From Thermoanaerobaculia bacterium (GTDB lineage: Bacteria; Acidobacteriota; Thermoanaerobaculia; UBA5066), in the NCBI GenBank assembly GCA_038245905.1, contig JBBRRY010000015.1, positions 19,361-83,360 on the forward strand: 64,000 nucleotides of DNA, given 5' to 3'. The position numbers and the translations under genes were made by a program. The notes under the pieces were generated by a model, which was given only the letters and a program-made list of their open reading frames with translations, was not told where the DNA came from and made no database searches. This document shows positions 2,901 through 60,528 of this stretch, one piece after another (positions within the stretch are counted from its first letter, which is position 1; every line of letters starts with the position of its first letter).

Positions 2901-2921
2901 ACCAGTCCGGCCGCCAGAGAC

Positions 2922-2973: not shown

Positions 2974-3009
2974 CGATGACTCTTTCAACCTCGGTTGACG
3001 GATTCATCG
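2974..3009. promoter_or_regulatory. Candidate enhancer (UAS): two palindromic sites for the NtrC-family regulator
   Basis: GATGA-ctctt-TCAAC and GTTGA-cggat-TCATC together form an imperfect inverted repeat ~75-110 bp upstream of the -24 box. Confidence 0.55.
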
Positions 3010-3015
3010 GTCCGC

Positions 3016-4413: not shown

Positions 4414-4415
4414 GC

Positions 4416-5117: not shown

Positions 5118-5121
5118 GGTT

Positions 5122-5904: not shown

Positions 5905-5945
5905 GACTTTTTCCTCCAGGGTGTCTGGAACGGAATGATACCGAA

Positions 5946-41199: not shown

Positions 41200-41208
41200 C
41201 CGGAGATG

Positions 41209-44198
<2,990 letters not shown>

Positions 44199-46319: not shown

Positions 46320-47567
46320 CTGCTCAAGCCCGTCGAGCTGGAAATCGAGCTGTTCTGCCTCGGAATGCGGATCGACGAGTCCTGTCACGTGGACGAGGAC
46401 GGGCGCCGCATTTCGCGCACGCGCGCTGGCCTCGGCTCGGGACTCGAGCTCGTGCTGCCTTCCCCGAGGAAGAAGATCTGGATCAACGTTCCCGTCGTCG
46501 AGCCGTTCGCGGCGAGGTCTCCCTTTCTCCTCGTCAAGAGCGGGAGCGGCTACGCGGTCACGGACACGCGCACGGGCGATCACTATCCCGTCGAGGTGCC
46601 TCCCGAGCCAGAGTGGTACTCGTGGAAGACGACGTCCGGCACGGAGATGAGCCGCGTCGGCGTCCTCCAGGGCACGTACCTCGGGATCTACGTCTCGAAT
46701 GCGTGCCTTTACTGGAGCCTGCCCGCTTCGCCCGCCTGTGCGTTCTGCACGACGGGCCGGAACGTCGGCGAGGCCGAGGAGTCGCGCAAGAGGGTCGAGG
46801 ACGTCGTCGAGGTTGCGAAGGCCGCGCGCGACCACTCCGGCTCGATCTTCACGCACCTGAACACCGGGTATCACTTCGAGGACGTCGACAAGCTCGAGTC
46901 GCTCCACGGCCTCCGGCAGTGCGAGCCGTTCGTCAAGGCGGTCCGCGCCGAGGTCGGCGGCTTCATCGGCGTCCAGGCCGTGCCCGTCCCGCGCCACAAA
47001 TTCAACGAGTACGACGACCTCATCGCCGCCGGGACGGACCACTTCTCCTTCTGCTACGAGTTCGAGGATCCCGAGGTGTTTGCGAGACTCTGCCCCGGCA
47101 AGGCGCAGACGGTCGGGCAGCACGCGTTCTTCGAGGCGATGGAGTACACGGCGAAGAAGCTCGGCGAAGGCAAGGTTTCGGGCGAGATCATCGCGGGCCC
47201 TGAGCCGATCGACGCGACGAAGCGCGCGATCGACCGCATCGTGAACGCGGGCGCGTTCCCGACCGTGTGCATCTTCCGGCCCACGCTCGGGAGCGCGATG
47301 GAGCACGTCGACCCGCCGAAGCCCGACGACATGAAGGAAGTTTTCGCACACCTCTGGCGGGCGGTTACGCGGGCCGGTCTCCCCGTAGGCATCCTCCCGG
47401 GAATCCAGGTCTCCCTCGTCGTCCAGCCCGAGGAGGCCGCCGACCTCGTCCCCGAGACGCTCCGGTCACGCCTCTACGAGACGAAGCTCGCGGCGCTCCG
47501 CGCGCTCGCGAGGCCTTATGTCGCATGGAAACGCAGGCCGCGAGGAAGCAGCTCCACGACGGCCTGA
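46320..47567 (+). CDS. Radical SAM protein with CX10CX2C motif
   Basis: CLYWSLPASPACAFC; TIM-barrel-like core (F...CPGK). Start placed at CTG 46320 after GGAGG; first ATG is at 46365. Confidence 0.85.
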   Translation: MLKPVELEIELFCLGMRIDESCHVDEDGRRISRTRAGLGSGLELVLPSPRKKIWINVPVVEPFAARSPFLLVKSGSGYAVTDTRTGDHYPVEVPPEPEWYSWKTTSGTEMSRVGVLQGTYLGIYVSNACLYWSLPASPACAFCTTGRNVGEAEESRKRVEDVVEVAKAARDHSGSIFTHLNTGYHFEDVDKLESLHGLRQCEPFVKAVRAEVGGFIGVQAVPVPRHKFNEYDDLIAAGTDHFSFCYEFEDPEVFARLCPGKAQTVGQHAFFEAMEYTAKKLGEGKVSGEIIAGPEPIDATKRAIDRIVNAGAFPTVCIFRPTLGSAMEHVDPPKPDDMKEVFAHLWRAVTRAGLPVGILPGIQVSLVVQPEEAADLVPETLRSRLYETKLAALRALARPYVAWKRRPRGSSSTTA

Positions 47568-47596: not shown

Positions 47597-47612
47597 TATG
47601 ACGCCGGTCATA
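47597..47612. promoter_or_regulatory. Crp/Fnr-family-like palindrome upstream of the nos-linked operon
   Basis: TATGAC-GCCG-GTCATA, perfect 6-bp arms with a 4-bp spacer; near-identical copy at 60513. Confidence 0.65.
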
Positions 47613-47649: not shown

Positions 47650-49575
47650 ATGCCTGTTCGCGTCCGGTTTCCCGACCTCGACCACTGGAAGGCGCAGGTT
47701 AAGTGCCAGGCCGGCTGTCCGGTCGCGACGGACGCCGGACGGTACGTTCAGCTCATCGCCGAGGGGCGTGACGAGGAGGCGTTTCTCGTCGCCCGGGCGC
47801 CCAATCCGTTCGCGTCGGTCTGCGGGCGCGTCTGCGCGGCCCCGTGCGAGGACGCCTGCCGCCGCGGCTCGATCGACGCGCCGATCTCGATCCGCGCGCT
47901 GAAGCGCTTCGTGACGGAACAGTACGGTGTCGAATCGCGGCATCCGGGAACGCAGGACAGGTTGCTGAGAGAGCCCATCCTGGAAGGAAACCGCTATTCG
48001 GGTCACCTTCCGATGCACTCTTCGGGCGCAAAGAAATCCACCGGTGCTCCCGGTCCCAAGGTAGCGGTGATTGGCGCCGGACCTGCCGGTCTTTCCGCCG
48101 CGCACGACCTCGCGCTCCTCGGCTACGCCGTGACTGTGTTCGAGGCCGCGGGTGAGCCCGGCGGAATGATGCGCTTCGGCATTCCGGAGTACCGGCTCCC
48201 GCGTACGCTCATCAAGGCCGAGATCGACAAGATCCTCTCCCTCGGGGTCACGCTGCGCCTCGGGACGGCGCTCACTTCGTCTTTCGGACTCGCGGAGCTT
48301 CGCGCCGCGGGCTTCGAGGCCGCCTTTCTCTCGGTCGGCGTGTCGAAGGGCCGCGATCTCGACATCCCGGGCGTCGAGCTGGACGGTGTCGTGAAGGCGG
48401 TCGACTACCTCCTGAACGTGAATCGCGGCTTCCGGATGGACCTCGGCCGCCGGGTCGTCGTCATCGGCGGCGGGTTCGTGGCGTTCGACGCCGCGCGCAC
48501 GGCGCTCCGCCTCGGCCGCGAGACCGACGTGGACGCTCGCGAGAAGGCGGGAGAGGCGGACGCGCGCCTCAAGGAGGCGCTCGACTCCGCGCGCGCCGCG
48601 CTGCGCGGAGGCGCGACCGAGGTCACGATCGTCTCTCTCGAGAACTTCGAGGAGATGCCCGTCCTCCGAAGCACGCAGGGCCACGAGGAGTTCGAGGAGA
48701 CGAAGAAGGAAGGCGTCGTCTTCGTGCCGCGCCGCGGGCCGAACCGGTTCCTCGGCAGCGGACGGCTCTCAGCGGTCGAGCTGAAGAGGGTGACGACGGT
48801 CTTCGACGCGGAGGGCCGGTTCGCCCCCGCGTACGACGAGTCGGACCTCGTCAAATTCGAGGCGGATGCCTGCATCCTCGCGATCGGCCAGAAGCCGGAC
48901 CTCTCGTTCCTGAAACCGGCGGACGGTGTCGCCCTGACGCCGGGCGGCACGATCGCGGTCGACCGGACGACCCTCGCGACGTCCGCGCCGGGGATCTTCG
49001 CCGGCGGCGACGTCGCGTTCGGGCCGCGGAACCTCATCGAGGCGGTCGCGAACGGCAAGCGCGCGGCGCGCTCGATCCACGAGCACCTCGCGAAGGAGAA
49101 GGCCTCGATCCGCGCGACGCTCGAGATCGAGAAGATCCCGACGATCTCCTACCGCATGATCGCGGGCTTCGAGATTCTCGACCGCGAGGCGCCTCCCACG
49201 CTCGACGTTGGTCGCCGCACCGGCATCGCGGAAGTCGAAAGCGGTTATGCGGCTGCCGAGGCGCGCACGCAGGCCGCACGCTGCCTCGTGTGCCACGTCC
49301 AGACGATTTACGACCCGGAGGCCTGCGTCCTTTGCAACCGCTGCGTGGACGTGTGCCCGGAGTACTGCCTCGCGCTCGTGCCGCTCGAATCGCTCGACCT
49401 GTCCGAGGAGGAGCGCGCGGCTCTCGTCGCGCGCGCCGAGGGCAACGGATTGCCGCTCTCGGCGATGGTCAAGGACGACGACCGGTGCATCCGCTGCGGC
49501 CTCTGCGCCGTCCGGTGCCCGACGGACGCGATGACGATGGAGAAGTTCTCGATCACGGAGGGATTCCATGAGTGA
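47650..49575 (+). CDS. GltD/NfnB-like FAD-dependent NAD(P)H oxidoreductase with N-terminal Fe-S and C-terminal 2x[4Fe-4S] ferredoxin
   Basis: CQAGCP, CGRVCAAPCEDAC, VIGAGPAG, GIPEYRLP, VIGGG, FAGGD, CLVC, CVLCNRCVDVCP and CIRCGLCAVRCP. Confidence 0.9.
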   Translation: MPVRVRFPDLDHWKAQVKCQAGCPVATDAGRYVQLIAEGRDEEAFLVARAPNPFASVCGRVCAAPCEDACRRGSIDAPISIRALKRFVTEQYGVESRHPGTQDRLLREPILEGNRYSGHLPMHSSGAKKSTGAPGPKVAVIGAGPAGLSAAHDLALLGYAVTVFEAAGEPGGMMRFGIPEYRLPRTLIKAEIDKILSLGVTLRLGTALTSSFGLAELRAAGFEAAFLSVGVSKGRDLDIPGVELDGVVKAVDYLLNVNRGFRMDLGRRVVVIGGGFVAFDAARTALRLGRETDVDAREKAGEADARLKEALDSARAALRGGATEVTIVSLENFEEMPVLRSTQGHEEFEETKKEGVVFVPRRGPNRFLGSGRLSAVELKRVTTVFDAEGRFAPAYDESDLVKFEADACILAIGQKPDLSFLKPADGVALTPGGTIAVDRTTLATSAPGIFAGGDVAFGPRNLIEAVANGKRAARSIHEHLAKEKASIRATLEIEKIPTISYRMIAGFEILDREAPPTLDVGRRTGIAEVESGYAAAEARTQAARCLVCHVQTIYDPEACVLCNRCVDVCPEYCLALVPLESLDLSEEERAALVARAEGNGLPLSAMVKDDDRCIRCGLCAVRCPTDAMTMEKFSITEGFHE

Positions 49576-50074
49576 GCCCCCAAGCCGGCGTGAGGTCTTC
49601 CTGAGGCTGGGATTCGGAGCGGGTGTGGCCGCCCTCGGCGTGCAGGCCGTCGCCTCGCTTCGGTCGCTCGTCCCGAACGTCTCCTACGACTCGCCGACGA
49701 CCGTGAAGATCGGAATGCCGAACGACTTTCCGGACGGCATGAAGTTCCTCCCGGACGAGCGGCTGTTCGTGTTCCGGGAAGGGAAGACGCTCCACGCGGT
49801 CTCCGCGGTGTGTACGCACCTCGGCTGCACCGTGCGCGCGGAGGCGCTGTCCGCACCGGAGACGAAGGACGTCAGCGGCAAGCCGCTGCGCCTCACGCAC
49901 CGCTTCCTCTGTCCGTGCCACGGCTCGAAGTACGCGGGCGACGGCACGAACGTGGCGGGCCCGGCGCCGAAGCCTCTCGCCTGGTACCACCTGTCGCTTT
50001 CGCCGGACGACGGCCAGCTCGTCGTCGACCTCGCGCAGCCCGTGGAGCGCGATTTTCGATTCACTCTGGCCTGA
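49568..50074 (+). CDS. Rieske 2Fe-2S subunit of a Rieske/cytochrome b complex
   Basis: Tat-like SRREVFL; CTHLGC and CPCHGS; GPAPKPL. Confidence 0.93.
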   Translation: MSEPPSRREVFLRLGFGAGVAALGVQAVASLRSLVPNVSYDSPTTVKIGMPNDFPDGMKFLPDERLFVFREGKTLHAVSAVCTHLGCTVRAEALSAPETKDVSGKPLRLTHRFLCPCHGSKYAGDGTNVAGPAPKPLAWYHLSLSPDDGQLVVDLAQPVERDFRFTLA

Positions 50075-50089
50075 AGGGCGGGACGAGAC

Positions 50090-51439
50090 ATGAGCGTACA
50101 TCCCGATAAGCCCGCTCCGAAGCCAGACGGCGCGCCCGGCGTCCACGCGAAGCCGCTCTGGAGCATCCGGCCCGCCTCGGACCGCGAGGCCGGCGACGCC
50201 GTCGTCTCCAACTTCCTCCTGCACTGGTTCCCGGCGAAGACGTACAAGCCGTCCCTCGACTGGAACTACTCGTTCTGGCTCGGCACCGCCTCCGCGGCGC
50301 TGCTGCTGCTCGTGACCGTATCGGGGCTGCCGCTCCTCTTCCTGTACGTCCCGTCCGTCGAGCGCGCGTACGGGTCCGTGAAGGACATCGAGTACGTCAC
50401 GACGTTCGGTTTCTGGATACGCGCCGTCCACCGCCTCTCCGCGCACCTCATGGTGGCCGTCGTCTTCCTCCACATGGTCCGCGTCTTCCTCACCGGCGCA
50501 TACAAGAACGGGCGTGGGCAGGGGCAGAAAAGGGAGCAGAACTGGGTGCTCGGCATCGGCCTCCTCCTCCTGACGCTTCTGCTCTCGTTCACGGGCTATC
50601 TCCTGCCGTGGGATCAGCTCGCGTACTGGGCGATCACCGTCGGCACGAACATCGCGTCCTCGATCCCGTTCGTCGGGCCAGCGATCCGCGAGCTGCTCCT
50701 CGGCGGGCGCGCGATCGACCAGGCCACGCTCATTCGCTTCTACGTTCTCCACGTCATCGCGCTGCCGGCGGCGATCGGCGTGATCTTCCTGTACCACATG
50801 TGGCGCGTGCGCAAGGACGGCGGACTCGCGCGCGCGGACCAGCTCACGCTTCTCCCCGAGAAGGCCGCCGAGGCTCCCTCGAAGACGAAGACCTACACGC
50901 TCCTCGGCGTCGCGCGCGGGACGTCACCGGCCGTGAAGGCATCGACGCTCGAGCGTCCGGACACGACCGTCAACTCGGTTCCGGACCTGACGCGGCGGAT
51001 CCTGATCGTCGTCCTCGCCATCTTTGCGATCGTGAGCATCGCGTCGGTCTTCTACCACGCGCCGCTCGAGGAGCCCGCGAACGCGCTCGTGACGCCGAAC
51101 CCCGCGAAGGCACCGTGGTACTTTCTCTGGCTCCAGGAGATCGTGACCGACACGACGGTGAAGATCGGCTCGTTCACGATCAACGGCGCCTTCCTCGGCG
51201 GCGTTCTGCTGCCGGGGGCGCTCGTCCTGCTCCTCACCGTCTGGCCGTGGCTCGACAAGAGCGCGCCCGGCTCGGCGGGCCTCTGGTTCCCGAAGGACCG
51301 GCGCACGCAGAACGCGGTCTTCCTCGCGTTCGTCGCGGGCGTCCTCGTCCTCACGTTCATCGGCACGTTCTGCCGCGGGCCGTACTGGCACCTTTACTGG
51401 CCGTGGCAGGCGTGGCCCGAGCTGCCGACGAGGATCTGA
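50090..51439 (+). CDS. Cytochrome b (unsplit b6 + subunit IV)
   Basis: R.VHR..AHLM....LHM.R, TGYLLPWDQ..YWA, RFY.LH...H; APWYF in place of PEWY. Confidence 0.93.
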   Translation: MSVHPDKPAPKPDGAPGVHAKPLWSIRPASDREAGDAVVSNFLLHWFPAKTYKPSLDWNYSFWLGTASAALLLLVTVSGLPLLFLYVPSVERAYGSVKDIEYVTTFGFWIRAVHRLSAHLMVAVVFLHMVRVFLTGAYKNGRGQGQKREQNWVLGIGLLLLTLLLSFTGYLLPWDQLAYWAITVGTNIASSIPFVGPAIRELLLGGRAIDQATLIRFYVLHVIALPAAIGVIFLYHMWRVRKDGGLARADQLTLLPEKAAEAPSKTKTYTLLGVARGTSPAVKASTLERPDTTVNSVPDLTRRILIVVLAIFAIVSIASVFYHAPLEEPANALVTPNPAKAPWYFLWLQEIVTDTTVKIGSFTINGAFLGGVLLPGALVLLLTVWPWLDKSAPGSAGLWFPKDRRTQNAVFLAFVAGVLVLTFIGTFCRGPYWHLYWPWQAWPELPTRI

Positions 51440-51440
51440 C

Positions 51441-52685
51441 ATGGAAAAACGCACGGACTCTCCGTATCCGCGTCTCGACCGCCCGATCCTGGCCGTCGTC
51501 GGCGTCCTCCTTGTCATCTCGTGCGCGCTCTTCGCGTGGAGCGACCGCAACCACGACTGGCGCTACTACCAGGCCACGTTCCGGGCCCAGGTCGCGGAGA
51601 AGCTTGGAGCCGAGAAAGCGAAGGAGCTGCACCCGGGTCTCCAGCAGGTGTGGGTCGCCGATCTCAAGCGCGCCGACCGCTGCATGACGTGCCATCAGGC
51701 GGCCCTCTGGAAGGGTTTCGAGACCGCAGAAGAGCCGCTCCGGACGCATCCGGCGGGACCGTTTCGGAACCACCCCGTCGAGAAATTCGGCTGCACGTCC
51801 TGCCACGGCGGACAGGGCTATGCCGTGGACGCGACGGAGGCCCATGGACTGATCGAGCACTGGGAGGAGCCGCTGCTCGGCAGGACCCTCGGCGAGGCCT
51901 ACTCGCTCGTGGACGACAAGAACGCGGCCATGCAGATGAACTGCAACGTCTGCCACCGGTACGACCGCGAGACGAAGGGCGCCGACGCGATCAACCTCGG
52001 CAAGAAGCTCGTGGTTGAGAAGGGCTGCCGCGCGTGTCACGTCGTGAACGGGCGTGGCGGCTCGATCGGACCGGACCTGACGAACGTGGGCGAGAAGGCG
52101 GCCGAGCAGTACGAATACGGCCGTCTCTCGGGGCAGAAGACATCGTTCGCGTGGCACGTCGCGCACTTCAAGGACCCTCGTGCACTCGCGCCCGAGACCG
52201 TCATGCCGAACTTCCACTTTTCGACGAAAGAGGCGCAGGCCCTCTCGATGCTCGTTCTCTCGTGGCGGAGGGCGCCGGTTCCGGCCGACTACCGCCCGGG
52301 AACGCCTCGCACGGACCCGCAGACGGCGGCCGAGGTCGAAGCCGAGGCGAAGATGAAGACCGGCCCGGGCGCGTGGTTCGTCAAGACGGGCTGCTTCGTC
52401 TGCCACTCGATTCAGGCGCTGGGCGTGAAGAGCCCCGCGCAGATCGGGCCGGACCTCTCGACGGCGGTCGAGGACGTGCAGTCGCGCTTCGGCCGGACTC
52501 TCGACGACTTCCTGAGGGAGCCCACGGGCACGATGTCGGTCGTCCTCTCGCGCCAGATCATCCTGACTCCCGAAGAAAAGGCCATCGCCGTCGGAAAGCT
52601 CCGCGAGGCGTTCGCGGAGTACCAGAAACAGAAAGCGGAGGACGCGAAGGGAAAGAAACCCGCGGCCTCCATCGCCGCCCACTGA
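51441..52685 (+). CDS. Membrane-anchored pentaheme cytochrome c
   Basis: N-terminal TM; CMTCH, CTSCH, CNVCH, CRACH and CFVCH. Confidence 0.92.
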   Translation: MEKRTDSPYPRLDRPILAVVGVLLVISCALFAWSDRNHDWRYYQATFRAQVAEKLGAEKAKELHPGLQQVWVADLKRADRCMTCHQAALWKGFETAEEPLRTHPAGPFRNHPVEKFGCTSCHGGQGYAVDATEAHGLIEHWEEPLLGRTLGEAYSLVDDKNAAMQMNCNVCHRYDRETKGADAINLGKKLVVEKGCRACHVVNGRGGSIGPDLTNVGEKAAEQYEYGRLSGQKTSFAWHVAHFKDPRALAPETVMPNFHFSTKEAQALSMLVLSWRRAPVPADYRPGTPRTDPQTAAEVEAEAKMKTGPGAWFVKTGCFVCHSIQALGVKSPAQIGPDLSTAVEDVQSRFGRTLDDFLREPTGTMSVVLSRQIILTPEEKAIAVGKLREAFAEYQKQKAEDAKGKKPAASIAAH

Positions 52686-52716
52686 GGATCACGCCTCGAG
52701 CCGAAGGAGAAGAGAA

Positions 52717-54588
52717 ATGAGACAAGCCTCCGGGAAATGGAAAGCCACCGCCGCGATCGCGTCGATCTTTGCGGCCGCCCTCGTGGCCTGGCAGTGTGCG
52801 CCCTCGGCGCCGAAGGGCGCGAAGAAGGGTCCCGCGAACGCCTCGGACCAGTCCGTCGCGGCGATGAAAACCTACGTGGCCCCGGGCGATCTAGACGAGT
52901 TCTACATGTTCGCGTCCGGTGGGCACTCGGGGCAGGTCTACGTCTACGGAATCCCGTCGATGCGGCACCTCTCGACGATCCCCGTCTACACGCCGTATCC
53001 CGCCACCGGCTACGGTTTCGACGACGAGTCGAAGGCGATGCTCGGGAACCTGACATGGGGCGATGCTCACCACCCGGCGTTGTCGGAGACGAACGGCGAC
53101 TACGACGGCCGCTGGCTCTTCATCAACGACATGAACGGCCGCATCGCGCGAATCGATCTCAGGGACTTCAAGACGAAGCAGATTTTCGGGCCGGTCCCGA
53201 ACGTGTCGGGCAACCACTCCGGATCGTACGTCACGCCGAACACCGAGTACGCGATGATGGGGTCGCGGTTCTCGATCCCGATCCCGAAGGGCAAGGTCCT
53301 TCCCCTCGATAAATACGCGACGGAATGGAAGGGCGTGCTCGCCGCCATCAAGATCGACCCGAAGACGGGCACGATGTCGCTCGCCTGGCAGATCCTGATG
53401 CCTCCCTTCGACTACGACCTCGGCGACGCCGGTAAGAAAGTCTCTGACGGCTGGATGTTCTGGACCTGCTACAACGCCGAGCGTGCAACAGGCAAGCTCG
53501 AGGTCACGGCCTCGCAGCGCGACCGCGATTACATCGCGGCCGTGGACTGGCGGGCGGCCCAGAAAGCGATCGACGAGGGGAAAGGAGACCTGATCGGCGG
53601 CGTGAAGGTCCTCGACCCGAAGAAGGTGCCGGGGATCGTGTGGCTCATGCCGTGCGGCAAGTCGCCTCACGGCGTGGACGTCTCGCCCGACGGCAAGTAC
53701 ATCGTCGGCTCGGGCAAGCTCCAGGGTGTCACGACCGTCTTCAACTTCGAGAAGATCCAGACGGCGATCCGCAACAAGGACCTTACCGGCGACGAGGACG
53801 GGATCCCCGTCCTGAAGTACGAGTCGATCAAGGACGCCGAGGTCGCGGTGGGCCTCGGCCCCCTCCACACGCAGTTCGGGCCGGACGGCTACGCGTACAC
53901 GTCGCTCTTCGTCGACAGCGCGATCGCGAAGTGGAAGCTCGGCACCTGGGAGGTCGTGGACAAGATCCCGATGTCCTACTCGATCGGCCACCTCGCGGCC
54001 GCCGAGGGCGACACCTGCACGCCGAAGGGCAAGTACCTCGTCGGTCTGAACAAGCTGTCGCACGGCCGGCATCTGTCGGTGGGGCCCGGGCAGCCGGAGT
54101 CGTCGCAGCTCGTCGATATTTCCGAGGAGAAGATGAAGCTTCTCTACGACGCGTTCACGGAGCCCGAGCCGCACTACGCCCAGATCGTCCTTGCGAAGAC
54201 ACTCCATCCGATCGAGGTCTATCCCAAGGAAGAGAACAAGAACCCGCTCGCGATCTGGGATCTCAAGGACGCCGGCGTCACGCGCGCGGGAACGAACGTC
54301 ACGGTGAAGGTCGTCCTCGTGCGCTCCACGATCACGCCGCAGGCCATCGAGGTGAACCAGGGAGACACTGTGAAAATCGCACTGACGAACATCGAGCAAA
54401 CGACGGACGAGCTGCACGGCTTCGGCCTGCTCGACTACAACATCAACATCGTGTGCGATCCGGGTGAGACCAAGGTCGTCACGTTCAAGGCCGACAAGCC
54501 GGGTGTCTTCCCGTACTACTGCACGAACTTCTGCTCCGCGCTCCACCAGGAGATGCAGGGCTACCTCATCGTGAAGGGAAAAAGCTGA
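52717..54588 (+). CDS. nosZ: Nitrous-oxide reductase, clade II (Sec-dependent)
   Basis: SGGHSGQ; CuZ His motifs DAHH, GNH, PHG, GPLH, GH, EPH; CuA HGF...CTNFCSALHQEM; no twin-Arg signal; no C-terminal cytochrome c domain. Confidence 0.96.
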   Translation: MRQASGKWKATAAIASIFAAALVAWQCAPSAPKGAKKGPANASDQSVAAMKTYVAPGDLDEFYMFASGGHSGQVYVYGIPSMRHLSTIPVYTPYPATGYGFDDESKAMLGNLTWGDAHHPALSETNGDYDGRWLFINDMNGRIARIDLRDFKTKQIFGPVPNVSGNHSGSYVTPNTEYAMMGSRFSIPIPKGKVLPLDKYATEWKGVLAAIKIDPKTGTMSLAWQILMPPFDYDLGDAGKKVSDGWMFWTCYNAERATGKLEVTASQRDRDYIAAVDWRAAQKAIDEGKGDLIGGVKVLDPKKVPGIVWLMPCGKSPHGVDVSPDGKYIVGSGKLQGVTTVFNFEKIQTAIRNKDLTGDEDGIPVLKYESIKDAEVAVGLGPLHTQFGPDGYAYTSLFVDSAIAKWKLGTWEVVDKIPMSYSIGHLAAAEGDTCTPKGKYLVGLNKLSHGRHLSVGPGQPESSQLVDISEEKMKLLYDAFTEPEPHYAQIVLAKTLHPIEVYPKEENKNPLAIWDLKDAGVTRAGTNVTVKVVLVRSTITPQAIEVNQGDTVKIALTNIEQTTDELHGFGLLDYNINIVCDPGETKVVTFKADKPGVFPYYCTNFCSALHQEMQGYLIVKGKS

Positions 54589-54607: not shown

Positions 54608-55255
54608 ATGAAGAACATCCTCGCGAAGAGCAATCGGTTTCTGGAGCTACCTCTCGATCTCGGGCCTCGCGGCCTCCTCTTGGTGGCCGTCCTCCTCCTC
54701 GTCCCGTCGTACTTGTTCCCGCTCTGGACCCTCACGATGTTCGCGCCCCAGTACGGCGACGGCCTGCGGATGCAGATCTACAGCTGGAGGCTGGACGGCG
54801 GGAACGGCGGCCAGGACATCAAGGAGATCAACGTACTCAACCACTACATTGGCATGCGCGACCTCACGACGGCGGACTTCACGGAATTCAAGTGGATTCC
54901 GTTCGTCGTGGGCATCCTGGCTCTCCTCATGCTGCGGACGGCCGTCCTCGGGAAGATGTCGCACCTCCTGGACAACGTCGTGCTCTATCTCTACTTCGGC
55001 GCGTTCTCGCTCTGGTCGTTCGCGTTCAAGCTCTGGAGCTACGGGCACAACCTCGCCTCGACGGCGGCCGTGAAGGTCGACCCGTTCATGCCCCCGATGT
55101 TCGGCTACAAGAAGCTCGCGAATTTCGAGGTCTATTCGTATCCGGGTGTCGGGTCGTATGCCCTCGGCCTCGTCGCGGTCGTCCTCGTCCTCGCGATGGC
55201 GCTCGCCGTGCGCGGGGGCAGACGCTTGTCCGCAAGCGCCGCCGGCTCCTCATGA
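54608..55255 (+). CDS. nosB: NosB-like four-TM protein
   Basis: PLW....APQY..GL, IN.LNHYIGM, YGHNL and PP..G.K...NF; directly after clade II nosZ. Confidence 0.85.
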   Translation: MKNILAKSNRFLELPLDLGPRGLLLVAVLLLVPSYLFPLWTLTMFAPQYGDGLRMQIYSWRLDGGNGGQDIKEINVLNHYIGMRDLTTADFTEFKWIPFVVGILALLMLRTAVLGKMSHLLDNVVLYLYFGAFSLWSFAFKLWSYGHNLASTAAVKVDPFMPPMFGYKKLANFEVYSYPGVGSYALGLVAVVLVLAMALAVRGGRRLSASAAGSS

Positions 55256-56610
55256 TCGCCTTGCCCTTCGTCCTTCTCCTGCAAGTCACCGGCAACATGG
55301 AGCCGGTGACGCCGGGGGGACTCGAGGGGCGCCCGCCCACGGCGGAGGCGTCCGCGCTGCAGGCGCGCGTGGACCGCGCGTCGCCGGGAGAGACTGTCGT
55401 CGTCGAGCCGGGCACGTACGCGGGGGATCTCGTGCTGGACCGTCCCGTCCGTCTCGTGGGCCGGGGGCGGCCTCTCCTCATGGGTTCCGGAAAAGGGAGC
55501 GTCGTGCGCGTGCGAGCGGACGGCGTCGTTCTCGAAGGATTCGACATCGACGGCCGGAGGGGCGGCGATCTCGGGAGAGATTCCTCGGGTGTCCACGTCG
55601 CCGCCCGAAACGTCGTCGTCCGCGACTGCCGGATCTCGGAGGCCCTGTTTGGAATCTACCTCCGGCAGGCAGACGGCGTCGTCGTGGAGCGCTGCCGCAT
55701 CCGCGGCATCCACGGCAAGGATCCGGGAGAGAAGGGCTCGGGCCTGCACGTCTGGGACACGAAGGGCTTCATGTTCAGGGACAACGTCATCGAGGACGTG
55801 CGCGACGGCTTCTACATCCAGTCCTCCTCGGGCGGGACGATCGCGGGCAACGTGGCGCGGGACCTCCGTTACGGCCTCCACTACATGTTCTCGGACGACA
55901 ACACGTTCGAAGACAACACCTTCGAGAATGGCGCGGCCGGCGCGGCGCTCATGTACAGCAAGCGCATCGTCTTCCGGCGCAACCGCTTCGTGAGGAACCG
56001 CGGATTCGCGTCGGTGGGGCTGCTCTTCAAGGCCTGCGACGACGTCCTCGCCGAGGACAACCTCATCGCGGACAACGCGCGCGGGATCTTCCTCGAGGGC
56101 TCGTACCGGAATATCTTCCGGGGAAACGTCGTAGCTCTCTCGGACGCCGCGATCGTCCTCTACGACTCGTGCGGCCAGAACCGTTTCGAGGGCAACTCGT
56201 TCGTCGGAAACCTGACGCCTCTCGCGCTCGTCGGGCAGCGAACGGACACCGTCTTCGACGGGAACTACTGGTCGGACAACCGCGAGCCGGATCTCGACGG
56301 CGACGGTCGCTCGGACCGGCCGTTCCCGCTCTCGAGCGTCTTCGACCACCTGCGAGGAAACCTCACGGCCGCGGACCTCTTTTCGCGGAGCGTGGCGGCC
56401 CGCGCGCTCGGGGCCGCGGAGCGTGGCTTTCCCGTGCTCCGGGAGGTCGAAGTCTTCGACCACACGCCGCTCGCGCACCCGCCGGCGCTCCCACGCGTTC
56501 CGCGGCCCGAAAGGCCGCCCGCGGGACGCGGGGCGCTCGCGCTCGCCGTGTCCGGCCTCTCGCTCCTCGGCGGCGCCGGTGTGCTTCTCACGGGGCGGAG
56601 GCAGGCGTGA
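55252..56610 (+). CDS. nosD: N2O reductase maturation protein NosD
   Basis: Parallel beta-helix; RYGLHYMFS, GAALMYS and GNYWSD..DLDGDG. Confidence 0.92.
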   Translation: MIALPFVLLLQVTGNMEPVTPGGLEGRPPTAEASALQARVDRASPGETVVVEPGTYAGDLVLDRPVRLVGRGRPLLMGSGKGSVVRVRADGVVLEGFDIDGRRGGDLGRDSSGVHVAARNVVVRDCRISEALFGIYLRQADGVVVERCRIRGIHGKDPGEKGSGLHVWDTKGFMFRDNVIEDVRDGFYIQSSSGGTIAGNVARDLRYGLHYMFSDDNTFEDNTFENGAAGAALMYSKRIVFRRNRFVRNRGFASVGLLFKACDDVLAEDNLIADNARGIFLEGSYRNIFRGNVVALSDAAIVLYDSCGQNRFEGNSFVGNLTPLALVGQRTDTVFDGNYWSDNREPDLDGDGRSDRPFPLSSVFDHLRGNLTAADLFSRSVAARALGAAERGFPVLREVEVFDHTPLAHPPALPRVPRPERPPAGRGALALAVSGLSLLGGAGVLLTGRRQA

Positions 56611-57347
56611 TCCGCTTCGAGTCCTTCTCGAAGAGCTTCGGCGCCCAGCGCGCCGTCTCGGACCTGACTCTCGCGATCGCGCCCGGAGAGATCGTCGCGC
56701 TCCTGGGGCCGAACGGCTCGGGAAAGACGACCTCGCTGAAGGCCGCCGCGGGCCTGATCCATCCGACGAAGGGCGGCGTCACCGTTGGCGAGGCCCGGCG
56801 GCCCGCGACCGAGCCCGCGGCGCGCCTCTCGCTCTCCTTCCTTCCGCAGAAGGTGTCCTTTCCCGACTCCCTGACGGGGCGCGAGGTCCTCGACTTCTAC
56901 CGCGCGCTCCGGGGCGTGCCGCCGGGGCGCGTCGACGCCGTCCTCAGGATGTCGTCCTTGAACGGAGCTTCGGCCCGCGCGGTGGGAACGTACTCGGGTG
57001 GCATGGCGCAGCGGCTCGGGCTCGCCGTCGCCGCGCTGCCCGACACGCCGATTCTTCTCCTCGACGAGCCGACGGCCGCGCTCGACCCTGACGGGCTCCG
57101 CGCGTTCTACACGCTCGCGGAGGAGCGCCGTCGCGACGGCAAGACCGTCCTCTTCACGACGCATCAGCTCGGGGACGTCGAGCGCCTCGCGGACCGTGTC
57201 GCAATCCTCGTGGGCGGGAGGCTCGTCGCGCTCCTGACGCGGCGCGCGCTCGAGGACTGGCTCCTCGCGCACGGAGTTCCGCTCGTGCGCGCCGAGACGA
57301 GTCCGCTCGAGGACCTGTATCGGGAGCTCGTCGGGGAGGAAACGTGA
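56607..57347 (+). CDS. nosF: ABC ATPase NosF
   Basis: GPNGSGKTT, YSGGM and LLDEP; position between nosD and nosL. Confidence 0.88.
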   Translation: MIRFESFSKSFGAQRAVSDLTLAIAPGEIVALLGPNGSGKTTSLKAAAGLIHPTKGGVTVGEARRPATEPAARLSLSFLPQKVSFPDSLTGREVLDFYRALRGVPPGRVDAVLRMSSLNGASARAVGTYSGGMAQRLGLAVAALPDTPILLLDEPTAALDPDGLRAFYTLAEERRRDGKTVLFTTHQLGDVERLADRVAILVGGRLVALLTRRALEDWLLAHGVPLVRAETSPLEDLYRELVGEET

Positions 57348-57802
57348 ACGCCCGCGCGCTCCCCGTCGCACTCCTCCTCGCCGCCCTGGCGGGCTGCTCG
57401 CGCGGCCCTGCGGCGCCCATCGCGGTCGACACGAAGAACGACCGCTGCGCCTGGTGCCGTATGGCCGTGTCGGACGCGCGCTTCGCCGCGCAGCTCGTGT
57501 CGCCGTCGGAGGAGCCCCGCGCGTTCGACGACATCGGATGCCTTGCGACGTTCCTGAAATCGGGCGGCGCTCCCGCGAAGGGACAGGTCGCCTACGTGGC
57601 CGACCACCGCACGAAGGCGTGGGTGCGCGCGGCGGGCGCGGTCTACACGAAGAAACCCGGCCTCGCGACGCCGATGGGCTCCGGCCTCGTCGCCCACGCG
57701 GAGGCCGCGTCCCGCGACGCGGACGCCGAGGCTGTGGGCGGGAGCCCGGTTTCCCGAGAGGACGTGTTCGGTCCTAACGGCGCCCCGGACGGCGGCCGAT
57801 GA
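57344..57802 (+). CDS. nosL: Copper chaperone lipoprotein NosL
   Basis: LAGC lipobox, CAWCRM, FDDIGC and TPMG.G. Confidence 0.92.
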   Translation: MNARALPVALLLAALAGCSRGPAAPIAVDTKNDRCAWCRMAVSDARFAAQLVSPSEEPRAFDDIGCLATFLKSGGAPAKGQVAYVADHRTKAWVRAAGAVYTKKPGLATPMGSGLVAHAEAASRDADAEAVGGSPVSREDVFGPNGAPDGGR

Positions 57803-57809: not shown

Positions 57810-58649
57810 ATGAGCGCTTCTCCCGGCCCCTTCCTCCTCTGCGCGCGGCAGGAGCTGCTTCTCGCGGTCCGCTCCCGCTGGACCCAGATTTTCGCGGCGG
57901 TCTTCGCGGTGCTCGCTCTCGCCGTCGCGTCTTCGGGCTACGTGCTCTCGGGCGGCCACGGCGTGCAGGACTTCGCGCGCACGGCGGCGTCGCTCGTCGA
58001 GCTGGTGCTCCTCCTCGTGCCCCTCACTGCGCTCCTGATCGGGGTCCTCGCGCTCGCCCCCGAGCGCGGAGCGGCGGAGCTGCTCTTCTCGCAGCCGGTC
58101 GCGCGGCGCGCGATCCTCTTCGGCAAGGTCACGGGCCTGTTCGGCGCGCTCGCCGCGGCGCAGGCCGTCGGGTTCGGCGCGGCCGGCCTCGTCATCTTCT
58201 CGCGGGCGGGCGGCTCAGGGCTCGGCGGCTTCGCGCTTCTGATCCTCGGATCGTTCGTTCTGACGGCGGTCTTCCTTGTCCTGGCGGCGCTCGTCTCGTC
58301 AGGAACCGTGGGTCGCCGTACGCGGGCGCTTGCGATCGCGCTCGTCGTGTGGTTCGGCGCCGTCGTGCTGTTCGACGTGGCCGCGCTCGGATTCGCCTCG
58401 CTCCTCCCGTCCGGTCCCGCATCGCGCGTCCTCATCGTGTCGGTGCTCGTGAATCCCGCGGATGCGGTCCGGACCGGCGCGCTTCTGGGGATCGAGGGAA
58501 GCGGCGCCTTCGGTGCGGCATCCCTCGCGCTTCTGCGCTTCACGCACGGTCCCGTCGGCGCCGCAATCCTCCTCGCCGCTTCTCTCCTCGTCTGGATGGT
58601 CGTGCCGGCTCTGCTCGCCGCGCGCCGGCTGGACAGGGCGGATCTCTGA
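57810..58649 (+). CDS. nosY: ABC permease NosY
   Basis: RT.ASL...L.LVPL, ELL.SQPV.R and NP.D..R; multiple TMs. Confidence 0.9.
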   Translation: MSASPGPFLLCARQELLLAVRSRWTQIFAAVFAVLALAVASSGYVLSGGHGVQDFARTAASLVELVLLLVPLTALLIGVLALAPERGAAELLFSQPVARRAILFGKVTGLFGALAAAQAVGFGAAGLVIFSRAGGSGLGGFALLILGSFVLTAVFLVLAALVSSGTVGRRTRALAIALVVWFGAVVLFDVAALGFASLLPSGPASRVLIVSVLVNPADAVRTGALLGIEGSGAFGAASLALLRFTHGPVGAAILLAASLLVWMVVPALLAARRLDRADL

Positions 58650-58690: not shown

Positions 58691-59305
58691 ATGATGAGTT
58701 TCATCCGAACGTCCGTCGTCGTCGCGTCTGCTCTGGTCACGATCCTGTCGACCGGTCCGGCTCTGGCCCACTGCGATACGGCCGACGGCCCCGTCGTCGC
58801 CGACGCGAGGGTCGCGCTCGAAAAGGGAGACGTCACGCCCGTTCTCAAGTGGGTCAGGCCCGCCGCGGAAGTTGAGGTCAAGGCGGCCTTCGCGCGCGCG
58901 CTTGCGGCACGCGGGAAGGGCCCGGAGATCCGGGCGCTGGCCGACGAGTACTTCTTCGAGAACCTCGTGAGGATCCATCGGGCCGGAGAGGGCGCGCCCT
59001 ACACAGGCATCCTGCCCGCCGGAACGCCCGTCGAACCGGCGATCGCGCTGGCCGACGAGGCTCTCGGCAGCGGCAACGCCGACAAGCTCGTGAAGGCCAT
59101 CGCGCACCACGTCGAGGAAGGGATCCGCGAGCGGTTCGCGCGCGCCGCAGCCGCGAAGAAACAATCCGGCACGAGCGTGGCGTCCGGGCGGGAATTCGTC
59201 GAGGCGTACGTGGAGCTCACGCACTACGTCGAGCGCCTGCACCTCGACGCCACGACGTCGGCCTCGCACGGCGCGGGGGCGCCTGCGGCCGAGCACAAAC
59301 ACTGA
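58691..59305 (+). CDS. Secreted helical protein, DUF6448-like
   Basis: Signal peptide ending ALA, then HCDTADGPVV; FFE.LVRIHRAGEGAPYTG; GRE.V.AYV...HYVE; His-rich tail. Confidence 0.8.
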   Translation: MMSFIRTSVVVASALVTILSTGPALAHCDTADGPVVADARVALEKGDVTPVLKWVRPAAEVEVKAAFARALAARGKGPEIRALADEYFFENLVRIHRAGEGAPYTGILPAGTPVEPAIALADEALGSGNADKLVKAIAHHVEEGIRERFARAAAAKKQSGTSVASGREFVEAYVELTHYVERLHLDATTSASHGAGAPAAEHKH

Positions 59306-59408: not shown

Positions 59409-60437
59409 TCACGGGGACGCCGTGCCGACCGCAAGCCGGACGAGCCGTCGCAGGAGGCCGACGAATGCGAGGATCCAGGCGCCCAGCGCAACCCAGACGA
59501 CGACGCGCGGGATGGCGAGGAGGAACGGTAGGTTCACGACATGCGCCAGCCGGAACGTGCAGGCCGTGTACATGCCGAGCGGGAAGATGGCGCCCCAGTA
59601 GAGAGGGTCATACGTGAGCGGAAACCGCCTCAGGACGTGCCGCCAGACGCCGAGGATGAAAAGCATCGGAATCCACCAGGTCGCGGTCGCCCAGAAGAAG
59701 AGCGTGAAGCCGAGGACGAAGGGCGAGAGCGTGGCGAGGAGGGGCGAAAGGGGCGCGCTCGCGTAGAGGAGCGTCCCCGCGAGCGTTGCGATCGCCATGG
59801 CGCCCATGTTGATCCAGTAGGGCGGCATGAGGTCTGAAGGCAAGAGCCTGAAGAAGGTGTAGCGGTAGAAAATGAGGGAAATCAGCCAGATGTACAGCAT
59901 CCCGCCCGCGAGCCAGAAGACGACCGATGTGAAGAGCAGCGCCTCGGCCCGCGCGCGGAAAGCGGGGGCGAGGAGCGAGGCGAGCGTCGAGACGGATTCC
60001 GTCGCGACGACCGCCAAGAGCCACCCGCCGTTGATGCCCGTGTCGAGCGCCGGCTTCTCGTCCTTCACGGTGAGCGCCGTGAACACCGCGTAGACGAGGA
60101 CGAGCCACAACGCGAGCGTGAGGAACCAGAGGACGAGCGCCGGTCCTGGCGCGTCGCGGAGGACGACGAGCTGCGACCCGAAGACGCTCGTCGCCGCGAC
60201 GGTCGTAAAGAAACCGACACCTCGCTGGTGGTCCGCGAGGTCGGCGAGGACCTCGCGCGGAAAGCGGACGATCCGGACCAGCGTGACGGCCCACAGCGCG
60301 ACGAACGCCGCTGCGTTCACCCAGAGCAGCGCTTCGGCCACCTCCGGCATTCCCATGAGGTGCGTGGAGATCGACACGATCCCCGTCGCCATCACGAGCG
60401 CGAAGTAGGCGGGATGGAGCGTGCGGACAGCCTCCAT
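59409..60437 (-). CDS. TDT/SLAC1 (tellurite resistance/C4-dicarboxylate) family anion transporter
   Basis: PAYFALVMATGIVS, INGGWL, PPYWINMGA.AI and YWG..FPLGMY. Alternative ATG at 60473. Confidence 0.9.
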   Translation of the reverse strand: MEAVRTLHPAYFALVMATGIVSISTHLMGMPEVAEALLWVNAAAFVALWAVTLVRIVRFPREVLADLADHQRGVGFFTTVAATSVFGSQLVVLRDAPGPALVLWFLTLALWLVLVYAVFTALTVKDEKPALDTGINGGWLLAVVATESVSTLASLLAPAFRARAEALLFTSVVFWLAGGMLYIWLISLIFYRYTFFRLLPSDLMPPYWINMGAMAIATLAGTLLYASAPLSPLLATLSPFVLGFTLFFWATATWWIPMLFILGVWRHVLRRFPLTYDPLYWGAIFPLGMYTACTFRLAHVVNLPFLLAIPRVVVWVALGAWILAFVGLLRRLVRLAVGTASP

Positions 60438-60512
60438 CCGAGGTGCGGTCCCGACCGATCCAGGCAACGTCATCGAATGTCTCTCTCGCCCCATTCTGCC
60501 TTCTCCACTGCC

Positions 60513-60528
60513 CATGATGCCGGTCATA
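60513..60528. promoter_or_regulatory. Second copy of the Crp/Fnr-like palindrome
   Basis: CATGAT-GCCG-GTCATA; 14/16 identical to the 47597 site; upstream of the TDT gene. Confidence 0.55.

Follow-up and report, generated by a model that had tools for sequence, protein, structure and literature searches.

A clade II nos operon of a Thermoanaerobaculia bacterium opens with an anammox-type Rieske/cytochrome b cassette that includes a putative NAD(H)-linked iron-sulfur flavoprotein

The window analysed here is a stretch of 64,000 nucleotides (nt) from a soil bacterium of the class Thermoanaerobaculia, phylum Acidobacteriota (assembly GCA_038245905.1, contig JBBRRY010000015.1, positions 19,361 to 83,360). 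It carries an operon for nitrous oxide (N2O) respiration of the clade II nos type, in which nosZ, the gene of the N2O reductase, is preceded by genes for an iron-sulfur flavoprotein, a Rieske protein, a fused cytochrome b and a pentahaem cytochrome c. As detailed below, these four genes are homologous to those of the Rieske/cytochrome b complexes of anaerobic ammonium-oxidising (anammox) bacteria, with which they share the gene order. It can tentatively be proposed that they encode a dedicated, anammox-type menaquinol:NosZ oxidoreductase equipped with a flavoprotein linked to nicotinamide adenine dinucleotide (NAD(H)), in which electrons would travel from quinol towards NAD+. The parts of this reading differ in strength. 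The Rieske/cytochrome b module very probably feeds NosZ, and the flavoprotein is probably a bound subunit of the complex. The direction from quinol to NAD+ is the possibility that we favour, with clear reserve. Statements made below on the whole genome rest on the source assembly, which has a size of 3.8 Mb and is 96.4% complete. Proteins nearly identical to those of the window are attributed to Acidobacteriota or Thermoanaerobaculia in their source records.

The first five genes of the operon form a single tight array on the + strand, from 47650 to 54588:

47650..49575, + strand: flavoprotein of 641 residues, with Fer4_20 and Pyr_redox_2 domains and a C-terminal 2x[4Fe-4S] domain (Pfam, NCBIfam)
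49568..50074, + strand: Rieske [2Fe-2S] protein with an SRRxFL N-terminus resembling a twin-arginine translocation (Tat) signal, one transmembrane helix and the boxes CTHLGC and CPCHGSKY
50090..51439, + strand: fused cytochrome b6/subunit IV of 449 residues, with a Cytochrome_B N-terminal part, a Cytochrom_B_C part and seven helices predicted from hydropathy
51441..52685, + strand: pentahaem cytochrome c of 414 residues, with five CxxCH motifs and one N-terminal helix (membrane anchor)
52717..54588, + strand: nosZ of clade II, the type exported by the general secretory (Sec) pathway (TIGR04246, 894.8 bits against a cut-off of 625)

The distances between these genes are, in order, -8, +15, +1 and +31 nt. 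The Rieske gene thus overlaps the flavoprotein gene by 8 nt; a GGAGG motif lies upstream of its start, and AAGGAG is found 10 nt upstream of nosZ. The tight array running from the flavoprotein to nosZ, described as an operon in an initial annotation made from the DNA alone, is borne out by gene calls, protein families and spacing. The model of the Tat-type NosZ, TIGR04244, gives the window NosZ a score of only 430.6 for a cut-off of 625. With its Sec-type NosZ, an adjoining nosB and the presence of nosD, nosF, nosY and nosL, the cluster is, on sequence grounds, a clade II (Sec-dependent) nos cluster.

Conservation of this arrangement was surveyed in two samples. The first comprises 151 genomes of the class, 40 of which gave flavoprotein matches at E <= 1e-60; the 40 corresponding loci were fetched and the window proteins were mapped on them. 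All 17 loci in which the flavoprotein is at least 55% identical to that of the window show the order flavoprotein-Rieske-cytochrome b-cytochrome c-nosZ, followed by nosB-D-L-Y wherever the contig continues. The second sample, hereafter the named loci, takes one genome per species and consists of the 80 best of at least 597 NosZ relatives, 57 of which can be evaluated, with at least 5.3 kb available upstream of nosZ. Thirty of these 57 loci have all four genes in order, 25 have none of them and two retain a piece of the cytochrome c only. Rieske and cytochrome b genes without the flavoprotein gene occur in none of the 57. Because the same order recurs in all 17 class loci and in 30 named ones, the arrangement is far beyond chance. 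Counted by genomes, NosZ is found in 22 of the 151 members of the class sample and the cassette in 18 of the 22; the other four have a distant NosZ, 40-46% identical to that of the window. The conservation of the cassette next to nosZ, on which the proposal of the initial annotation hung, is thus observed in both samples.

The carriers among the evaluable named loci span about ten phyla. They include four Acidobacteriota lineages, Anaeromyxobacter sp. PSR-1 and two metagenome-assembled genomes (MAGs) of Anaeromyxobacter, Bacteroidota MAGs, Ignavibacteriaceae, Chlorobiota, Ca. Kryptonium, Zixibacteria, Calditrichaceae, and MAGs of Desulfomonile and Syntrophaceae. In the cultured Anaeromyxobacter sp. 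PSR-1, the flavoprotein is 73% and NosZ 79% identical to the window proteins, and the genes for the Rieske protein, cytochrome b, cytochrome c and nosB-D-L-Y stand in the same order. The non-carriers belong to Verrucomicrobiota, Gemmatimonadota, Eisenbacteria, Bacteroidia/Chitinophagales and one Phycisphaerales (Planctomycetota) genome. In the genome papers on Ignavibacterium and Melioribacter, nos clusters are described without the flavoprotein-Rieske-cytochrome b cassette. In a NosZ tree (FastTree), carriers cluster together, with 8 label changes as compared with 31 in shuffles; non-carriers fall into two separate clades and Blastocatellia are nested among the carriers. In the Blastocatellia-type loci (L095 and L098), the only match upstream of nosZ is to the C-terminal part of the pentahaem cytochrome c. 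Since their NosZ is nested among those of carriers, this looks like a secondary loss of the flavoprotein-Rieske-cytochrome b module. The flavoprotein tree places all nos-linked copies in one clade of 53 rows (Shimodaira-Hasegawa-like approximate likelihood ratio support of 94), apart from three paralogue clades. One of the 17 class loci (L047 = L071, genome G028) has its flavoprotein gene in two pieces; its cytochrome b, cytochrome c, nosD and nosY give truncated or split matches and its nosZ is intact, which reflects either a decaying operon or indel errors of the assembly.

The flavoprotein is predicted to be a cytoplasmic iron-sulfur protein of the GltD/NfnB fold, binding flavin adenine dinucleotide (FAD) and NAD(H) and containing four [4Fe-4S] sites. 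Its sequence matches in the PDB are NfnA, NfnABC and NfnI. The AlphaFold2 model has a mean predicted local distance difference test score (pLDDT) of 89.4 and a predicted template modelling score of 0.89, this confidence excepting a family-specific insert at 301-319. The best Foldseek matches of the model are 9bov_A, 9n5u_A and 8oh5_C, with E down to 4e-45, so that the closest folds are the NAD(P)H modules of the electron-bifurcating NfnABC and StnABC, and of NfnI. The insert lies in the NAD domain; it measures 32 residues (about 291-322) in the window protein and 16-48 residues across the family. Sixteen Cys residues are invariant in the flavoprotein alignments, arranged as 6 + 2 + 4 + 4 (C19/23/58/62/66/70 with C545/548; C559/562/565/569; C613/616/619/623). 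They would therefore suffice for four [4Fe-4S] clusters. In the clusters of the N-terminal domain, the first two Cys would be supplied by a C-terminal RCLxC segment, after which comes the extra 2x[4Fe-4S] ferredoxin domain. A look-up in the ESM Atlas confirmed the family and its bias towards Acidobacteriota. Some relatives are longer: P0128 (1069 residues) has an N-terminal extension of about 430 residues made of TPR repeats, and at the Planctomycetota loci L154 and L155 the flavoprotein match lies within open frames of 886-1100 residues.

The pyridine nucleotide specificity of the flavoprotein can be approached from its NAD domain. In HMMER alignments with NfnA (9n5u) and with 9bov, S329-L330-E331, within V325-T-I-V-S329-L330-E331, stands opposite the YRR of VTVVYRR or VTVLYRR, as had been noticed in the initial annotation by comparison with NADPH-specific GltD homologues. 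An [S/C/A]LE is found at this site in 65 of the 66 family members derived from the loci, paralogues included; the remaining one has YPE. The YRR at the end of strand beta-2 of the NAD(P) domain binds the 2'-phosphate, and the general rule for Rossmann folds is that an acidic residue ending beta-2 excludes this phosphate. Because of the acidic residue of SLE at this position, a preference for NAD(H) over NADP(H) appears likely.

The Rieske protein contains both boxes of its family, CxHxGC (as CTHLGC) and CxCH (within CPCHGSKY), and matches PF00355 with E 1e-11. In cytochrome b, His114, His128, His221 and His236 (haems bL and bH) align with the His residues of cytochrome b6 and are invariant in 36 of 36 sequences, as is His45 in NFLLHWFP. 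The Qo motif reads APWY (A341-P-W-Y344). It too is invariant in all 36 sequences, recurs without exception across nos-linked, paralogous and anammox copies, and counts as a variant of the P[E/D]W[F/Y] pattern rather than as its absence. Cys35, the haem ci ligand of cytochrome b6, falls on W63 of the window protein, which has no CxGG motif for haem ci/cn; the nos-linked copies read [FLWY]WLG[TS] in this region where it is intact, and LYLGT in L045/L046. The two peculiarities that the initial annotation had pointed out in cytochrome b, APWY in place of PEWY and the lack of a Cys at the haem ci position, are thus both confirmed. On the negative (n) side of the membrane, the motif WRVRKDGG is conserved, with R239, R241, D243 and G245 invariant. 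Crude hydropathy indicates three helices after the linker, in the subunit IV part. As to the cytochrome c, nos-linked homologues of more than 330 residues have five CxxCH motifs in 47 cases out of 47, and this protein is presumed to be the electron wire from the Rieske protein to NosZ.

The initial annotation had compared the operon with the anammox Rieske/cytochrome b complexes. The resemblance is a true homology with shared gene order, as indicated by the identities of the single subunits and by the PDB matches of the Rieske protein. The two best solved relatives of the window Rieske protein are 9rk3 and 9rk4 (E 7.5e-19 and 1.9e-18, the next best being 2.5e-16). According to the accessible text of the structural study, these are Kustd1480 and Kuste4569, the Rieske subunits of two Kuenenia complexes with an NAD(P) oxidoreductase, encoded by Kustd1480-1485 and Kuste4569-4574 (PMC12954380). 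Moreover, four small Planctomycetota genomes with a hydrazine-synthase alpha (HZS_alpha) domain contain the array flavoprotein-Rieske-cytochrome b-(subunit IV)-multihaem cytochrome c, in the order of the window. Identities with the window proteins are 34-38% for the flavoprotein (residues 9-637), 33-36% for the Rieske protein and 38-42% for cytochrome b; the identity of the cassette with the genes of Kuenenia itself was compared through the PDB Rieske entries only. Flavoprotein homologues occur in 23 of 301 sampled Planctomycetota genomes, and cassettes are also present in non-anammox Planctomycetota. At one locus of an anammox-type genome (L151, genome G358), a second GltD-like gene that keeps YRR (1566-3284) lies directly upstream of the xLE-type flavoprotein gene (4201-6021), so that this cassette may combine an NADPH-type and an NADH-type module. 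An AlphaFold3 model from the same structural study proposes an additional haem b at the dimer axis of the anammox complexes, bound by an N-terminal His of each cytochrome b, His43/His62 (PMC12954380). His45 of the window aligns with the first His of FHLHP in the cytochromes b of two anammox genomes.

Cytochrome b operons of this kind had been recognised before. Dibrova et al. (2017) report, in the part of their article available to us, that cytochrome b genes of subfamily G stand beside genes of large NAD(P)-binding iron-sulfur proteins in many lineages and that the loss of haem cn goes with the fusion of cytochrome b and subunit IV (PMC5600118). Both associations fit the window locus. Nitrous oxide is not mentioned in that same portion of the article (PMC5600118).

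In the mechanism that we favour, menaquinol would be oxidised at the APWY Qo site. The first electron would pass from the Rieske protein through the pentahaem cytochrome c to NosZ and N2O, and the second would cross the membrane via haems bL and bH. On an n-side of the b6 type that lacks haem ci, this second electron would leave through the four [4Fe-4S] clusters to FAD and NAD+, and not at a canonical Qi site. The whole would amount to a quinol-based bifurcation driven by the very high potential of the N2O/N2 couple. The potentials are about +1.35 V for N2O/N2, about -0.07 V for menaquinone and -0.32 V for NAD+, and because of these values such a bifurcation is energetically allowed. The quinone is probably the low-potential menaquinone, since the genome has menaquinone genes of the MqnA/D (futalosine) type and no match to MenA was found in it.

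The first question is whether the flavoprotein belongs to the complex at all. Among the flavoprotein loci of the class, Rieske and cytochrome b genes lie directly downstream in 35 of 40, that is 17 with nosZ and 18 without it, and hence the flavoprotein goes with the Rieske/cytochrome b module and not with NosZ as such. A multimer model of the flavoprotein on cytochrome b, a check suggested in the initial annotation, was computed from cytochrome b residues 22-280 and 296-395 as two chains and the full flavoprotein, with paired alignments of 36 rows. The interaction prediction score from aligned errors (ipSAE) was 0.32 (0.32, 0.38 and 0.30 in the runs), whereas none of three controls exceeded 0.00. 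At least 90% of contacts coincide between the runs, and the partner has a pLDDT of at least 71. In the calibration, 58 of 80 solved complexes attained the mark, as did 2 of 110 mismatched pairs; scores of 0.60 or under comprised only 7 of the 80 solved complexes together with both mismatches that passed. The model thus speaks weakly for binding and raises the odds slightly; the all-or-none pattern in the genomes is the stronger argument.

Alternatively, the flavoprotein may be a soluble, co-regulated NAD(H):iron-sulfur oxidoreductase, with ferredoxin as a partner or a role in redox balancing, while the Rieske/cytochrome b complex would feed NosZ by an ordinary Q cycle. The low interface score agrees with such a protein, as do the lack of any predicted transmembrane helix in the window flavoprotein and the absence, in motif and hydropathy screens of 273 homologues, of any fusion to a Rieske protein or cytochrome b. 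Moreover, five class loci have the flavoprotein without Rieske or cytochrome b, beside genes for a cbb3-type oxidase and FixG, so that pairing with other membrane modules is possible. However, a freely diffusing enzyme does not lead one to expect the all-or-none association with Rieske/cytochrome b genes in the 57 named loci and in 35 of the 40 class loci, a gene order kept from Acidobacteriota to anammox genomes, or the overlap of the flavoprotein stop with the Rieske start. One relative of the flavoprotein, P0175 (820 residues), has three predicted N-terminal transmembrane helices and would be a membrane-anchored form. In Kuenenia, complexes with cytochrome b and the large oxidoreductase are highly expressed, as stated by Dibrova et al. 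(2017) citing de Almeida et al. (2016) (PMC5600118; excerpt), and Hauser et al. observed that all subunits of the anammox complexes co-migrated (PMC12954380; accessible text). On this balance, a soluble enzyme seems quite unlikely.

If the flavoprotein is taken as a subunit, the direction of its electrons has to be considered, and several points weigh against the flow from quinol to NAD+ and against the framework in which it is placed. GltD/NfnB-type modules usually work the other way, passing electrons from NAD(P)H to an iron-sulfur chain. A NuoF-type complex I subunit is encoded in the genome and provides an ordinary link between NADH and quinone, and a heterotroph has no obvious need for NADH derived from quinol. 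The absence of a Qi site is deduced solely from the missing haem ci Cys, and the conserved WRVRKDGG could form a quinone site. The step from SLE to NAD(H) is the application of a general rule for Rossmann folds. Complex predictions with scores as weak as that obtained here would be more often wrong than right unless binding is likely beforehand. Consisting of the 80 best of at least 597 relatives, the named-locus survey is a biased sample of clade II, in which NosZ proteins resembling the query are over-represented. Finally, the reduction of NAD(P)+ by the anammox complexes is likewise presented as no more than a proposal (PMC12954380).

The main rival, already listed beside bifurcation in the initial annotation, is the reverse flow, from NADH through the flavoprotein and the iron-sulfur wire to haem bH or to a quinone site on the n-side. 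The complex would then be an NADH:N2O oxidoreductase with an internal Q loop, in which each NADH would drive two turnovers of the Qo site, with release of 4 H+ per N2O and a bypass of complex I. The fold and the closest structures, which are the NAD(P)H-oxidising GltD, NfnB and NfnA/StnC-type modules, are those expected of such an enzyme; by textbook potentials the path from NADH (-320 mV) through iron-sulfur clusters and haem b to menaquinone is downhill, and the invariance of the n-side residues R239/R241/D243/G245 would suit a quinone site. It should, however, be noted that the NuoF-type complex I is already present in the genome, as in five of five other cassette genomes checked, three of them above the cut-off. 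The reverse flow would waste the energy that complex I conserves, a counter-argument raised by the anammox authors themselves for their complexes (PMC12954380; accessible text). The Rieske box CPCHGS[KR][YF] and the high potential of the nearest solved relatives are a better fit to bifurcation, and a b6-type Qi site would lack its haem ci. For Kustd1480 and Kuste4569, potentials above +300 mV were measured, which in the authors' view fits NAD(P)+ reduction (PMC12954380; accessible text). Flow from NADH into the b haems is consequently judged rather unlikely, and the soluble-enzyme and NosR-like rivals are weaker.

The last of these, an idea also raised in the initial annotation, assigns to the flavoprotein a role in the upkeep of NosZ. 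As a stand-in for the NosR of clade I, it would deliver low-potential electrons across the membrane via cytochrome b to keep the CuZ centre active, instead of serving bulk energy metabolism. NosR is an iron-sulfur flavoprotein that clade I requires, as far as the consulted part of the source goes (PMC11409646), and the apparent lack of a NosR in the present genome would leave room for a substitute. A search of the genome (96.4% complete) for Fer4_5 domains, of the NosR/NosH/NapH type, gave no match. With regard to the initial annotation, which had described the cluster as devoid of nosR, nosX and nosG/H, this extends its statement to the genome for nosR- and nosH-type genes; within the cluster all other open reading frames have been assigned, and nosX and nosG were not searched genome-wide. 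However, homologous cassettes occur without nosZ in the same class (with an octahaem cytochrome c, or with a molybdoenzyme having an EB_dh subunit), and among Planctomycetota, whether anammox or not. Those of the class, which are paralogous to the window cassette, make a role specific to CuZ activation less likely. Conversely, in this sample, the clade II clusters of Verrucomicrobiota, Gemmatimonadota, Bacteroidia and one Phycisphaerales genome do without the cassette. Electrons on the b haems would moreover have to return to the positive (p) side, for which no route is evident. A NosR-like function is thus very improbable.

The paralogous loci of the class deserve a description of their own. 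In 18 loci, with flavoproteins 41-49% identical to that of the window, the order is flavoprotein-Rieske-cytochrome b-multihaem cytochrome c, and nosZ is missing. One type (L061-L062 and L066-L069, for instance L062:3983-13156) has a fused cytochrome b and a cytochrome c with six or seven haems. In the two loci of this type that were annotated, the genes downstream encode a molybdopterin oxidoreductase of 1180 residues (L062) or Fer4_11 and EB_dh-type haem subunits (L069), suggestive of a periplasmic enzyme of the type II dimethyl sulfoxide reductase family wired to the same kind of complex. Another type (L048-L055, L063-L065 and L070) combines the flavoprotein and Rieske genes with a split cytochrome b6 and subunit IV and with an octahaem cytochrome c. 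Upstream of it are an unassigned protein of 475-497 residues with one CxxCH and a CarboxypepD_reg protein, and no terminal reductase was identified at these cassettes (open reading frame calls for L050 and L054, Pfam for L054 only). The five loci without Rieske or cytochrome b genes (L056-L060, for instance L057:5-7145) carry a third flavoprotein paralogue, 44-46% identical. In L057, the only one searched with Pfam, a multihaem cytochrome c, a COX1-type protein (cbb3 or nitric oxide reductase-like) and FixO are encoded upstream and a FixG-like iron-sulfur membrane protein downstream, which points to haem-copper oxidase modules as further partners of the flavoprotein family. The window's own genome has four further loci with Rieske and/or cytochrome b genes and no adjacent flavoprotein of the family:

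C13:2447-7263, C4:102589-103940, C3:122827-124440 and C59:8362-9197: further Rieske/cytochrome b loci

A GltD-like gene, 30% identical, lies about 5 kb from the locus on C4.

Downstream of nosZ, the window cluster continues with nosB-D-F-L-Y, with 4-nt overlaps among later nos genes, and with a further gene directly after nosY:

54608..55255, + strand: NosB-like membrane protein of 215 residues, with several predicted helices and without Pfam or NCBIfam match
55252..56610, + strand: nosD (TIGR04247, 379 bits against a cut-off of 300), the start taken as the ATG that overlaps the nosB stop
56607..57347, + strand: nosF, ABC ATPase (ABC ATPase families over residues 480-733 of the long open reading frame), with an inferred GTG start overlapping the nosD stop
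57344..57802, + strand: nosL, copper chaperone lipoprotein (PF05573 NosL, E 3.7e-7)
57810..58649, + strand: nosY, ABC-2 permease (PF12679), syntenic in related loci
58691..59305, + strand: DUF6448 protein (PF20046, E 4e-58) with an N-terminus resembling a signal peptide

The NosB-like gene starts 20 nt after nosZ, and nosB is defined by its position relative to nosZ (PMC11096178; excerpt). Of the 80 named loci, only two show no homologue in this place (it was not detected in L107, and the contig of L077 ends just after nosZ); among the class loci it is present in 16 of 17, the contig of L031 ending after nosZ. The DUF6448 protein has an AHCDT motif. Genes of its family also lie inside or beside the nos clusters of L032/L110, L075, L088 and L090 (Acidobacteriota, Bacteroidota and Ignavibacteriaceae), in varying positions: after nosY, before the flavoprotein gene, or between the cytochrome c gene and nosZ. 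The protein may thus be an extra nos accessory protein that has so far escaped description.

A candidate regulatory site precedes the operon:

47598..47611, strand not assigned: perfect 14-bp palindrome ATGACGCCGGTCAT, 39 nt before the ATG of the flavoprotein gene, candidate operator of the CRP/FNR family

This is the sole perfect copy of ATGACGCCGGTCAT in the window, where five matches with at most one mismatch are found for 0.64 expected; the 3.8-Mb genome has seven perfect copies. Of 44 orthologous loci, 26 have a TGA-N6-TCA box in the 250 nt that precede the flavoprotein gene, in most cases with the form (T/C)ATGAC-N4-GTCATA. The form of the palindrome suggests a site of the CRP/FNR family, and its position would make the flavoprotein gene the first of the regulated unit. 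A copy with one mismatch, ATGATGCCGGTCAT, is present at 60514-60527, at the start of a minus-strand gene for a TDT-family transporter (59409-60527), which may belong to the same regulon. A scan for promoters and terminators was uninformative, with no promoter-like sites and 8 terminator-like sites for 7.3 expected.

On the other side of the palindrome, a "variant radical SAM" gene (46365-47567, + strand; NF045502, 159 bits) ends 82 nt upstream of the flavoprotein gene. It was considered as a member of the operon, to which it probably does not belong; its orientation varies and it is present only in some Thermoanaerobaculia loci. Further upstream, the segment 40001-42000 has a strong A-over-T skew of 0.365 at 71% G+C, just ahead of a GyrB/ParE-like gene (42282-44198). 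The longest + strand open reading frame there (40618-42462) has no family match, and its charge-rich product looks like that of a wrong reading frame.

Some of the elements assembled here are already in print separately, namely the Rieske/cytochrome b genes of clade II nos clusters and the cytochrome b operons with NAD(P)-binding iron-sulfur proteins. With parts of the picture present in nos maps and in the article of Dibrova et al. (2017), the novelty is below what the initial annotation implied. In a literature search that left figures, supplements and subscription reviews outside, no source was found that equates the "Fe-S" gene of nos clusters with an NAD(H) flavoprotein of the anammox type, or that puts forward a mechanism by which this protein would connect N2O respiration with NAD(H). 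Reviews such as those of Hein and Simon may already contain the link between the flavoprotein and nosZ.

The cassette bears on the electron route to clade II NosZ outside Campylobacterota. It appears to provide electron transport for an entire subclade of NosZ, one that includes Acidobacteriota, which are among the most abundant soil nosZ groups in a 2026 survey (PMC13122619; excerpt). Were the flavoprotein a subunit, the carriers would couple N2O respiration directly to their NAD(H) pool. For anammox bacteria, a complex of this type has been proposed to supply NAD(P)H, and the occurrence of the cassette in culturable Anaeromyxobacter opens this proposal to genetics and biochemistry. A more speculative extension, to which we give a low probability, is an NADH-looped Q cycle: each menaquinol would be split, one electron going to NosZ and one uphill to NAD+, and the NADH would re-enter through the NuoF-type complex I. 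If this were true, the low-potential electron would be recycled through a proton pump instead of a Qi site, roughly doubling the H+ per electron transferred to N2O. Such a cycle would account mechanistically for the higher growth yields reported for some clade II N2O respirers, a group that includes Anaeromyxobacter, and would make Anaeromyxobacter a test bed for a quinol-bifurcating Rieske/cytochrome b mechanism so far proposed only for anammox bacteria. In the accessible text of Conthe et al., some clade II organisms are reported to form up to 1.5 times more biomass per N2O, the bioenergetic implications are called largely unknown and the electron-transport genes of nos clusters are pointed to (PMC5864245).

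Several known systems can be compared with the window operon. Published clade II nos clusters have the same kind of operon, with an iron-sulfur, a Rieske, a cytochrome b and a cytochrome c gene. From the work of Sanford and co-workers in 2012 onward, they have reportedly been drawn with genes labelled Fe-S, Rieske, cy-b and cy-c. These labels are found in the figure legends of two later nos-cluster maps, where the first gene is named only "Fe-S" and, in the text accessible, FAD, NAD(H) and homology with anammox proteins are not mentioned (PMC11096178, PMC13122619). In the Sec-type systems, the supply of electrons is a second term of comparison. A 2017 study is said to have described a menaquinol-dependent supply to a Sec-type NosZ via a Rieske/cytochrome b complex and NosB. 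In that system, a general bc complex encoded elsewhere reportedly works with dedicated NosGH, whereas the operon of the window encodes its own flavoprotein-bearing complex and no genes with a Fer4_5 (NosH-type) domain were found.

With NosR of clade I, the window flavoprotein has in common that it is an iron-sulfur flavoprotein encoded in the nos cluster and linked to the electron supply of NosZ. The two proteins have no architectural homology: NosR is an integral membrane protein with flavin mononucleotide and Fer4_5-type clusters, whereas the window protein is a predicted soluble FAD protein with the GltD/NfnB fold, in which a Rossmann domain would bind NAD(H). The resemblance to NfnB, NfnA, StnC and GltD modules (5jca, 9bov, 9n5u, 8oh5 and 2vdc) is much closer, extending over the fold, the FAD and NAD(P) Rossmann domains and the two N-terminal [4Fe-4S] sites. 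The window protein differs from them by SLE in place of YRR, by the insert in its NAD domain and by the C-terminal RCLxC segment with the additional 2x[4Fe-4S] domain. It is, moreover, encoded with membrane cytochromes and not with soluble partners.

The closest counterparts are the anammox complexes, in which a large, Cys-rich, NAD(P)-binding iron-sulfur protein is likewise encoded within a Rieske/cytochrome b operon. The anammox cassettes share with that of the window the pattern of 16 Cys, a Glu at the YRR site ([CS][LY]E), the AKAPWYF Qo motif and a His aligned with His45. The published anammox models, as far as the accessible text describes them, have an iron-sulfur wire of four clusters, a subunit IV of five helices and a haem cN (PMC12954380). 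At the sequence level, the window flavoprotein likewise has the Cys residues for four clusters. The two systems differ in other respects. Cytochrome b of the window is fused to a subunit IV of three helices, and it has W63 where the anammox proteins keep the CLGG motif of haem ci. Its cytochrome c has five haems, for six or eight in anammox cassettes. The host of the window operon is an acidobacterium of heterotrophic type, and the high-potential partner of the complex is NosZ instead of the octahaem protein related to hydroxylamine oxidoreductase that is found in anammox bacteria.

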